64,000 nt of DNA from Candidatus Marinacidobacterium sp. (GTDB lineage Bacteria > Acidobacteriota > Vicinamibacteria > Marinacidobacterales > Marinacidobacteraceae). The stretch spans positions 824,621 to 888,620 of the forward strand of contig OZ244852.1 in assembly GCA_965220965.1 (NCBI GenBank), written 5' to 3'. Shown piece after piece: positions 62,788 through 64,000 of this stretch; the first letter of the stretch is position 1, and every line of letters starts with the position of its first letter. The notes under the pieces were generated by a model, which did not search any database, was not told the DNA's origin, and was given only the letters and a program-made list of their open reading frames with translations. The translations under genes and the position numbers were made by a program.

Positions 62788-64000
62788 TCATCGGGACGTG
62801 AGGGCCCGAAGGGCCGCGACGGCGGCGTTGACGACGTGGGCGCGGGACCCGATGGAACGAACGCGAATGCTTCGGATGCCTGCGGTCTCCAAGAGCGCCC
62901 GTAGACGGCCACGGGCGTGAACGCCCGAGTCGGCGCTCGCGGGCCGCAGCAGAAGGCGCGAGGAGCCATAGGCGCCAACCGTGGCGCGCGGAATGGTGTT
63001 GTGGGAGATCGGGACGACGAACAGGGCGCGTCGAGCCCGATGCTCGGCCCGGGCACATGCTCTTCGAGGTGTGCTCTCGCATGCGCGTCCGACGCCGAGT
63101 CGGCCGTTGCGATCACCCACGGCTACGAGCGCCACGAATCGTCGGTGTCGAGGCGCTACGGCCCGCCGTGAGAGCGGTCGGAGCGTGAGAAGGCGAGGGG
63201 TCAGCGCCGGTGGAGATTGGGAGGGGGACGGGTGGGAAGGAAGTTCGAGGAGGAGTGCCGGCAGAGTGTGCGAGCCAGCCCGTAGCCTGAGTTCCCCGGA
63301 CGCTGGCTCGGATTGGACAGAGAGGAGGTCGGCGAAAGAGCCCAGCGGAATCGAGACGGCCGTCTTGTGCGGAAACTGGGCAGCAAGGCCACTGTCGGCC
63401 TCGTGGCGGTAGCGTCCGGGCTGACCGTCAGCGAAGGCCGCCTCGATCGTCCGCTCCGTGGGTGGCGCCAGAACCTCCAGTGCGGCGTGTCGCCGATAGG
63501 TTCGGCGAAGCGGTCGTCGCTCCCAGCAGGAGTCACCCGCCATCCGCCACCAGAGGCGCGGCAGATCCAGGACAATCGGGAGGCTGTCGTCGCCGTCGCG
63601 CAGTTCAAGGCGCACCCGATCGGTCTTGGGGGAGTACGGCACCCGCGCCTCTCGAGTGCGAACGGCCACATCGCGCGTGCCGGTGTTGAGCTGCAGCGAC
63701 CGACCATGGCTGTCTTCGATCGTGATGTAGTCCTCGTCGCGGTCGTCTGGCAAGAGGAGTCGGAGACCCTCGAATGGCAGTCCGTTCACCAGAATCCTCT
63801 TGAGGCCTGGCCAGTAGCGGAACGTGGTCGTGTCGGCGAGATGAGTGTGGCCGCTCTGATACGTGCGAAGAAAGAACTCGCCGCGCCTGTTCCCAATGCG
63901 CACGGGTGTTGGCTGCTCTGTGAGTTCGAAGTTCTTGCCCTTCCACGGTTCGTCGGCTGGCCCCGCGTGGCGCCCGGCGGCGCGGGGGTGCTCCTCTCCG
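62788..64000 (-). CDS. Multidomain protein, 5' partial (extends beyond the window end), with a calcineurin-like phosphoesterase motif, a linker, and a C-terminal two-domain ribosomal-protein-S5-like module
   Basis: The frame stays open from nt 64000 down to 62788; the GTG at 63903 is an internal Val. The N-terminal visible part …GRHAGPADEPWKGKNF…NRRGEFFLRTYQSGHTHL carries GH / GHxH metallophosphoesterase signatures. C-terminal …HRRFVALVAVGDRNGRLGVGRACE… and …TIPRATVGAYGSSRLLLRPASADSGVHARGRLRALLETAGIRSIRVRSIGSRAHVVNAAVAALRAL closely parallel both domains of bacterial RpsE. Confidence 0.5.
   Translation of the reverse strand, partial: GEEHPRAAGRHAGPADEPWKGKNFELTEQPTPVRIGNRRGEFFLRTYQSGHTHLADTTTFRYWPGLKRILVNGLPFEGLRLLLPDDRDEDYITIEDSHGRSLQLNTGTRDVAVRTREARVPYSPKTDRVRLELRDGDDSLPIVLDLPRLWWRMAGDSCWERRPLRRTYRRHAALEVLAPPTERTIEAAFADGQPGRYRHEADSGLAAQFPHKTAVSIPLGSFADLLSVQSEPASGELRLRAGSHTLPALLLELPSHPSPSQSPPALTPRLLTLRPLSRRAVAPRHRRFVALVAVGDRNGRLGVGRACESTPRRACARAEHRARRALFVVPISHNTIPRATVGAYGSSRLLLRPASADSGVHARGRLRALLETAGIRSIRVRSIGSRAHVVNAAVAALRALTSR

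Follow-up and report, generated by a model that had tools for sequence, protein, structure and literature searches.

At one end of a 64,000-nucleotide stretch of contig OZ244852.1 from Candidatus Marinacidobacterium sp. (the window, meaning the whole of the DNA analysed), an open reading frame (ORF) on the minus strand (62788–64000) encodes a protein that ends in a copy of the small-subunit ribosomal protein uS5, and lies directly upstream of, and in the same direction as, a gene for a DruE helicase of the Druantia anti-phage family (Table 1). We refer to the product of the S5-bearing gene as the partner. The S5 residues sit in a minus-strand translation that closes with a TGA stop codon at 62788–62790. 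In correction of the sequence-only reading that drew attention to this frame, its start does not lie inside the window; the frame runs off the window end, and the full gene, present on an ENA metagenome contig (ERZ26695579 ctg114883, here L001) that was retrieved by exact-protein look-up of the downstream ORF, spans L001:7402–9951 and encodes 849 residues. Comparison with relatives of the partner shows that its C-terminal position is a slot whose module is exchanged across the family, and this is our main result.

Table 1. Features of the S5-bearing partner gene and its helicase neighbour, in window coordinates
Feature	Position	Strand	Evidence
Compact DruE helicase, 1418 residues: DEAD, Helicase_C, MrfA Zn-binding (DUF1998)	58482..62738	-	Pfam, PADLOC
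49-nt spacer, partner stop codon to DruE start codon	62739..62787	-	sequence, L001 gene calls
3' part of partner gene, 403 codons + stop	62788..64000	-	no stop up to 64000; gene runs past window end
Complete uS5-derived module, first beta-strand to last helix, diverged, Arg-rich	62791..63252	-	
S5 C-terminal (S5 domain 2-like) domain	62797..62976	-	Pfam Ribosomal_S5_C PF03719, E 2.3e-11, 43.4 bits vs cut-off 21.5
S5 N-terminal (double-stranded RNA-binding-domain (dsRBD)-like) domain	63010..63195	-	Pfam Ribosomal_S5 PF00333, E 1.6e-9, 38 bits vs cut-off 27.1
C-terminal 266 residues of the 451-residue core, modelled as tandem immunoglobulin (Ig)-like beta-sandwich domains	63202..63999	-	
Pro/Ser-rich linker PSHPSPSQSPP between core and S5 module	63253..63285	-	translation; lowest pLDDT blocks of folded part, 58–68

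The resemblance of the C-terminal module to S5 is confirmed and lies far beyond chance. Both Pfam S5 domains exceed their gathering scores and follow one another in the native order of rpsE, the NCBIfam model TIGR01021 (rpsE_bact) aligns over 135 of its 156 positions (E 2.3e-24), and a tblastn search of the entire window with Thermus thermophilus S5 returned this site as its sole match. In the structure predicted by AlphaFold2 from a 66-sequence alignment, with a mean predicted local distance difference test (pLDDT) score of 83.9 overall and 95–98 across the module, the module has the S5 fold with its two domains in their native arrangement; a single-sequence run gave a pLDDT of 32, and all structural statements made here use the alignment-based model. 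The profiles and the predicted fold therefore bear out the earlier proposal of a two-domain S5 module, dsRBD-like and then S5 domain 2-like, within a non-ribosomal protein. As had also been proposed, the module is Arg-enriched and diverged: it contains 28 Arg, no Lys and 5 acidic residues, for a net charge of about +23 compared with +10 to +13 in canonical modules, and it is 26–35% identical to all other S5 modules of the family and 36% identical to Thermus S5. Core strands and loops are kept (VVGD.NGR.G.G, TIP, LLL.PA, LE.AG and GS...N..A..L), and the GGR loop and the GKA.EVP.AI.KA motif are gone. With a score of 84–86 bits against the 164-bit equivalog cut-off of rpsE_bact, this composition, and its position at the C-terminus of a far larger protein, the module is not the housekeeping rpsE, again in agreement with the sequence-only reading, which had also rightly placed the gene outside any ribosomal-protein operon; its surroundings comprise a helix-turn-helix (HTH) gene, a TonB-dependent receptor, DruE and a metalloprotease. 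A mis-assembly, or a misread sole rpsE, was rejected, as the same fusion recurs in ENA metagenome contigs, in several complete long-read chromosomes of metagenome-assembled genomes (MAGs) and in JGI metagenomes.

Upstream of the S5 module (partner residues 715–849), the partner consists of a Pro/Ser/Glu-rich segment with no domain match (residues 1–260), which we read as a disordered N-terminus, and a conserved 451-residue family core (residues 262–712). The core, which has no match in Pfam, NCBIfam or PADLOC, is predicted to adopt an Ig-like beta-sandwich fold, and its portion within the window carries the family-conserved motifs GRRGEFFLRTY, FRYWP and LPRLWWR. The phosphoesterase-like region previously suggested to precede the S5 module thus gives way, in the profile searches and in the model, to tandem Ig-like beta-sandwiches. 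Several relatives depart from this layout. P0009 (1173 residues) has the entire partner core in tandem duplicate within one polypeptide, followed by one eL13-like tail, and P0132 (1119 residues) opens with a hydrophobic N-terminal segment, contains ~350 residues of repeats resembling coiled coils and a core duplicated in part, and ends in a Cys-rich, zinc-ribbon-like tail where a ribosomal module would otherwise be. A PIN domain was found in the N-terminal region of two partner ORFs among L001–L081, reflecting either a real nuclease fusion or an ORF over-extended into an upstream toxin gene. The 1756-residue ORF upstream of DruE at L079:695–5965 joins the partner frame, with no stop between them, to an SNF2-type helicase carrying SNF2-rel_dom and Helicase_C. 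The ORF starts of related loci were set mechanically, such that their N-terminal lengths may be over-extended.

The exchange of modules in the C-terminal slot is apparent from a uniform census of 125 non-redundant partners, a set skewed toward what could be reached by scanning loci and by the 150 best matches in the representative search. An eL13-like module is present in 90 of these, uS5 in 12 and NusA KH1-KH2 in 3, with single instances of uS2, uS17, bS6 and the omega subunit of RNA polymerase (RNAP); the other 16 tails are unassigned or truncated. Seven partners carry a sigma-70 module at their N-terminus, all of them with an eL13-like C-terminus as well. When the last 300 residues of 77 partners were compared with Pfam, Ribosomal_L13e was matched in 42 and Ribosomal_S5_C in 6, with one match each to RNA_pol_Rpb6, Ribosomal_S2 (E 3e-93) and Ribosomal_S17 (E 5e-28).

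Some of these modules are full-length and native-like, and exceed the NCBIfam equivalog cut-offs for the corresponding ribosomal proteins: the uS5 module of L003 scores 207.8 bits against 164, the uS17 module of L023 98.6 against 88.7, and the uS2 module of L036 312 against 76. The omega module at the C-terminus of L016 was detected by Pfam and missed by an E. coli RpoZ probe. NusA-type KH domains make up the C-terminal ~140 residues of three proteins from the representative search (P0007, P0008 and P0010; Pfam), and in P0008 they correspond to the KH1-KH2 region of solved NusA structures (E 2e-23); the bS6 module (Pfam Ribosomal_S6) is that of P0140. The majority module matches archaeal L13e (NCBIfam, 36–53 bits) and eL13 chains in the PDB, the latter with a query typed from the profile consensus, its first ~15 residues altered, rather than a natural protein. 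The sigma-70 fusion occurs in one acidobacterial clade, where it lies in frame at the partner N-terminus in seven independent loci with continuous frames (L008:2121–4499, L018:1962–4538, L059:1644–4532, L073:1785–4529, L074, L072 and L098). It is a complete primary sigma factor, with regions 2, 3 and 4, plus a region 1.2 match after region 4, and matches RpoD/SigA at E 1e-88. The tails of two further partners (L010:5351–5878, 176 residues; L060:2381–3097, 239 residues) are neither eL13-like nor any recognised module, and a PDB search with them gave no convincing relative; the best match of L060 had E 6e-4 with no matched stretch passing alone, and L060 also showed a weak zinc-ribbon match.

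The pairing of partner and DruE is conserved. A one-genome-per-species scan with DruE gave 132 relatives, from which 80 loci were retained for analysis (DruE 45–56% identical to that of the window), and in essentially all 80 the middle region of the partner lies immediately upstream of DruE (tblastn with the 849-residue protein, E 1e-88 to 1e-9). Scanning metagenomes with the core profile added 15 partner loci, for a total of ~95, so the coupling to the adjacent helicase that had been suggested from the window alone holds well beyond it. In most related loci the partner ORF abuts or overlaps the DruE start, unlike in the window, where a gap separates the two. Clustering of ORFs across the 80 loci identified the partner and DruE alone as conserved genes; no further conserved gene was found among them, every other recurrent cluster being a shadow ORF that overlaps the pair. 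A scan of viral contigs returned no relative of the partner core. Two of the partner ORFs (L052 and L069) contain one in-frame stop each inside the conserved core, and represent either pseudogenised cassettes or assembly errors.

The window fragment itself gave no match against genome contigs, a search that worked with DruE, and in a word-index protein search it returned three free S5 proteins only and nothing for its non-S5 part, while the family profile found 14 proteins; as the family is poorly reached by word-index searching, the census was based on locus scans and an exhaustive representative search. It is likely that fused partners are annotated as ribosomal proteins while PADLOC detects the helicase neighbour alone. 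P0001 (237 residues, JGI), the only named source among the first word-index matches of the fragment, is labelled 'small subunit ribosomal protein S5'.

Hosts of the cassette belong to the Acidobacteriota, Chloroflexota, Gemmatimonadota, Latescibacterota, Poribacteria, Binatia, Proteobacteria, Spirochaetia, Nitrospinota and other groups. Many are sponge-associated (Poribacteria, Poriferihabitaceae, Spongiisociaceae, SAR202, Latescibacterota and Binatia). The presence of DruE homologues in a dozen phyla, with many sponge-associated hosts, suggests horizontal spread within sponge microbiomes. The G+C content of the cassette in the window (61–67%) is below that of its flanks (70–74%). A second low-G+C stretch lies at window positions 50001–52000 (0.61–0.64 versus ~0.72), overlapping a 563-residue ORF (50441–52132, plus strand), and may be an acquired segment. 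Just past the window end, upstream of and divergent from the partner gene, is a 103-residue Xre-type HTH_31 gene (L001:6703–7014, minus strand); such a neighbour is not conserved in related loci.

By its helicase and gene order, the cassette is Druantia-like, in the style of type III-B, and its partner was not recognised as a DruH by profile or alignment. The Druantia type classification reportedly goes back to Doron in 2018. The window helicase is a large superfamily 2 protein with DEAD, Helicase_C and DUF1998/MZB domains that matches the PADLOC profiles DruE1 (E 7e-144) and DruE3 (E 4e-135), retains intact helicase motifs (GTASGKT, DEAH, SAT and QRVGRAGR), and scores 115 bits against the 874-bit cut-off of its nearest NCBIfam helicase family. 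A single extra gene lies upstream of and co-directional with druE, as in Druantia type III. The window DruE aligns with E. coli DruE through about residue 1710 of 2104 only, and Pfam, PADLOC and this alignment revealed no PLD or other nuclease domain in it; the PLD-like nuclease domains that mark the DruE of type III-A are thus absent, and what is present is the compact, PLD-free DruE with a single partner gene by which type III-B is described (Bell et al. 2025, PMC12458937; bioRxiv 10.64898/2026.05.13.724758).

Homology between the partner and DruH was not detected. PADLOC DruH models matched none of 9 partners, and the NCBIfam family YjiT_fam (STY4851-ECs_5259 family), which recognises E. 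coli DruH at E 1e-296, matched none of the 8 partners tested. Profile alignment with hhalign gave a probability of 0.3% for the partner profile against E. coli DruH, and 0.1% against the partner of one candidate compact system, from a C. butyricum plasmid (L101). Conversely, the eL13-like motif was not found in E. coli DruH. As the C. butyricum partner is itself unrelated to E. coli DruH, 'DruH' would, at the level of sequence, be largely a positional label. Cryo-electron microscopy resolves E. coli DruH into an N-terminal and a C-terminal domain with Ig-like subdomains; the C-terminal domain contributes to the binding of single-stranded DNA (ssDNA), the site of which lies at its interface with Ig5 (bioRxiv 10.64898/2026.05.12.722862). 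It is considered the probable infection sensor of Druantia in the Druantia literature.

Simple neighbour-joining trees of the cores suggest how the slot has been refilled. The six S5 bearers of the genome scan, window protein included, form one clade, sister to an eL13-like clade in which the uS17, uS2 and omega bearers are nested as single tips; the eL13-like module is both the ancestral and the majority occupant. Two other S5 bearers (P0011 and P0020) have cores 46–49% identical to eL13-type members and 30–38% identical to the S5 clade, and retain an extra Ig-like domain ahead of the S5 module, so uS5 was captured at least twice. The NusA-KH bearers, the closest core relatives of the S5 clade (47–50% identical to L002, L066 and L003), are nested within it, which indicates that KH replaced S5 there. 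Rates of divergence differ between core and module: L003, L004 and L084 have cores 43–51% identical and S5 modules 87–88% identical, the modules passing the rpsE equivalog cut-off or being near-identical to one that does, whereas L002 and L003 have cores 54% identical and modules just 33% identical. Given their excess of identity over the cores, the modules of L003, L004 and L084 are either under ribosome-grade constraint or repeatedly refreshed from rpsE. Host-matched capture of the uS2 module is unsupported; although carried by a gammaproteobacterial MAG, the module is nearer to actinobacterial and Firmicute S2 than to gammaproteobacterial S2.

Tentatively, and with somewhat less than even confidence, we favour a reading in which the head, as we call the module in the slot, is the nucleic-acid or ribonucleoprotein recognition module of a sensor or adaptor subunit. 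The S5 module would be the C-terminal head of the partner in a two-gene, compact Druantia-like anti-phage cassette, and the partner would comprise a disordered N-terminus, a family-defining Ig-like core and a terminal slot refilled with modules of the transcription and translation machinery. The head would bind structured RNA or single-stranded nucleic acid, in the role that the ssDNA-binding site plays in E. coli DruH, and would bring the co-encoded DruE 3'-5' helicase to invader-associated nucleic acid or license its action there. That the cassette is directed against phages is suggested by the homology of DruE, the patchy distribution, the variable neighbourhoods and the low G+C content, and a sensor or adaptor role for the partner by analogy with DruH. 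The toxin/effector or RNA-repair role that was proposed at the outset found no specific support, and as the adjacent helicase is a Druantia DruE, the partner is better read as the sensor or adaptor of a defence helicase. Binding of nucleic acid by the head is suggested by the slot modules, most of which are RNA- or ssDNA-binding folds (dsRBD-like, OB, RRM-like and KH, together with the DNA-binding regions of sigma). To our knowledge, bacteria lack eL13 and their ribosome has no site for it; an eL13-like module therefore cannot have been copied from a protein of the bacterial host, and the simplest reading is of a domain that binds RNA. It is these binding folds, together with the eL13-like majority and the lost S5 motifs and gained charge of the window module, that lead us to favour recognition of nucleic acid or ribonucleoprotein; targeting of rRNA, the ribosome or another structured RNA by the S5 module, as first proposed, is a live possibility.

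Several observations weigh against this preferred reading. We know of no nucleic-acid binding by RNAP omega, and neither omega nor full-length uS2 fits a series of generic nucleic-acid-binding domains. Ribosome-grade constraint on, or repeated refreshing of, the S5 modules of L003, L004 and L084 would be needless for a mere basic RNA binder, uS5 was taken up on at least two occasions, and the partner shows no detectable homology to DruH. Moreover, in the coupled transcription-translation complex TTC-B of E. coli, NusA KH1, uS2 and uS5 meet in a single contact (bioRxiv 10.1101/2024.03.13.584796), which suggests specific targeting of the expression machinery over generic binding. Apart from the missing DruH homology, the same observations speak for two alternatives in which the modules act through their identity as host proteins. 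Taken together, these make it possible, though less likely than not, that the partners act as modular sensors in which copies of host uS5, uS2, uS17, bS6, NusA KH, omega and sigma-70 are built into a Druantia-type helicase system, either for docking on coupled RNAP-ribosome complexes or as decoys. On this reading, uS5, uS2 and NusA KH1 would mark the interface at which transcription and translation are coupled as the site under surveillance. Were docking the function, which we consider unlikely, the modules would keep their native surfaces and tether the partner and DruE to the transcribing or translating machinery, with sigma-70 and omega addressing RNAP, uS2, uS5, uS17 and bS6 the 30S subunit or rRNA sites, and NusA KH the nascent RNA or the uS2/uS5 pocket, such that the helicase would patrol expressed (invader) DNA or coupled complexes. 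The near-native uS5, uS17 and uS2 modules above their equivalog cut-offs, the origin of the sigma-70 module in a primary sigma factor, and the presence in the slot of all three members of the TTC-B contact, with NusA KH replacing uS5 in the S5 clade, agree with this idea; the majority module, for which the bacterial ribosome offers no site, does not, nor does a uS2 module unmatched to its present host. At the window locus itself, native incorporation into the 30S subunit is doubtful, since the conserved S5 motifs are lost and the module scores so far below the cut-off. Use of the modules as integrated decoys is similarly improbable: they would bait phage takeover factors (for example anti-sigma factors, NusA-dependent antiterminators of the N/Q type, or modifying enzymes that act on ribosomal proteins), and binding or modification of the bait would switch on DruE, much as integrated decoys work in plant nucleotide-binding leucine-rich repeat (NLR) immune receptors. 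Rapid, repeated turnover of the slot, filled from complexes as unrelated as the ribosome, RNAP and NusA, and fresh, near-native modules alongside strongly diverged ones, would be expected of decoys, and sigma-70 and NusA are classical phage targets. On the other hand, we know of no phage factor that targets uS5, uS17, bS6 or omega, an eL13-like module could not mimic a bacterial protein, and the mismatch of the uS2 module to its current host counts here as well. The idea of a decoy has been raised for a bacterial NLR-related protein that lacks an identifiable host domain (PMC11702601), but known Druantia III senses DNA structures rather than proteins according to the Druantia literature.

Two further explanations depart from a sensing head altogether. 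It is quite improbable that the cassette is not a defence system and instead encodes a helicase complex with a housekeeping or stress function, whose targets would be ribosomes, rRNA or stalled transcription, as in quality control of RNA or ribosomes or in transcription-coupled DNA repair of the MrfA kind, the modules providing substrate recognition. All modules do come from the expression machinery, in keeping with the RNA-repair idea, and repair helicases are known within the YprA/MrfA family (Bell et al., PMC12458937); however, the helicase matches DruE far better than its nearest NCBIfam helicase family, the patchy phyla, variable neighbourhoods and lower G+C content are typical of mobile defence cassettes, and the in-frame stops in two loci suggest that the cassette is dispensable. 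Least probable of all is that the S5 module of the window is a decaying remnant of a once-functional capture that no longer contributes. No other S5 module in the family has diverged as far, and it has lost the GGR and GKA.EVP motifs, yet its frame is unbroken, the two Pfam domains still reach significance, the predicted fold has very high confidence, and divergence has been no faster in the module than in the core (29–38% identical to other cores).

In the literature as far as it was accessible, we found no paper linking Druantia or DruH partners with ribosomal-protein, L13e, NusA, omega or sigma domains. Current work assigns the sensing by which Druantia would tell invader from self to the partner DruH. 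The family described here is a natural domain-swap series in which one scaffold and its helicase carry heads of uS5, uS2, uS17, bS6, NusA KH, omega or eL13-like type, sometimes with an N-terminal sigma-70, so that the function of the head is directly testable. Current defence annotation misses the clade, PADLOC recognising the helicase only. The principle of sensing or targeting has a substantial chance of being new. If docking or mimicry is correct, no earlier bacterial defence system would have had identifiable host-protein domains integrated in it, DNA-helicase immunity would be tied to transcription-translation coupling, and the mode of sensing or targeting would be one undescribed for bacterial immunity.

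Comparison with known systems places the cassette near several of them. Like bacterial uS5, the window module has both Pfam domains in native order along with conserved strands and loops, but rpsE encodes a stand-alone protein of about 160–250 residues in the spc operon, whereas the module ends an 849-residue protein outside that operon, falls below the equivalog cut-off, lacks the two motifs and carries roughly twice the net positive charge. Organellar uS5m and uS5c, with their long N-terminal extensions, are true ribosomal subunits with ribosome-specific extensions; here, the extension is an Ig-like scaffold beside a defence helicase. The cassette shares with Druantia III and III-B the two-gene operon, with a large partner upstream of a DEAD/Helicase_C/DUF1998-MZB DruE, and with III-B also the compact DruE lacking a PLD domain. 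Its partner resembles E. coli DruH in consisting mostly of Ig-like beta-sandwiches with a C-terminal domain, which is an analogy rather than a demonstrated homology. Neither sequence nor profile comparison detected a resemblance to E. coli DruH/YjiT_fam, to the PADLOC DruH models or to the C. butyricum partner, and a further difference is a terminal domain that is exchangeable and drawn from ribosomal proteins, NusA, RNAP omega or sigma-70. Plant NLR integrated decoys (e.g. the WRKY domain of RRS1) and the decoy hypothesis for bNACHT11 (PMC11702601) likewise involve a copy of a host housekeeping protein in an immune component, with lineage-specific turnover, and Pfam, NCBIfam and PDB sequence searches identify such recognisable host-protein copies here for uS5, uS2, uS17, bS6, omega, NusA KH and sigma-70. 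In contrast to those decoys, the scaffold is a Druantia partner rather than a STAND (signal transduction ATPases with numerous domains)/NLR protein, the commonest module is eL13-like and without a bacterial host counterpart, and binding by a pathogen factor is hypothetical. Finally, host factors are used in trans by other systems, EF-Tu in Avs7 and ribosomal protein S15 in type V-K CRISPR-associated transposons (cited in PMC13581612). There too, components of translation lend structure or recognition to a defence or mobile-element machine; however, those systems recruit the free protein of the host, whereas the cassette described here covalently fuses a dedicated, diverging copy to its own subunit.

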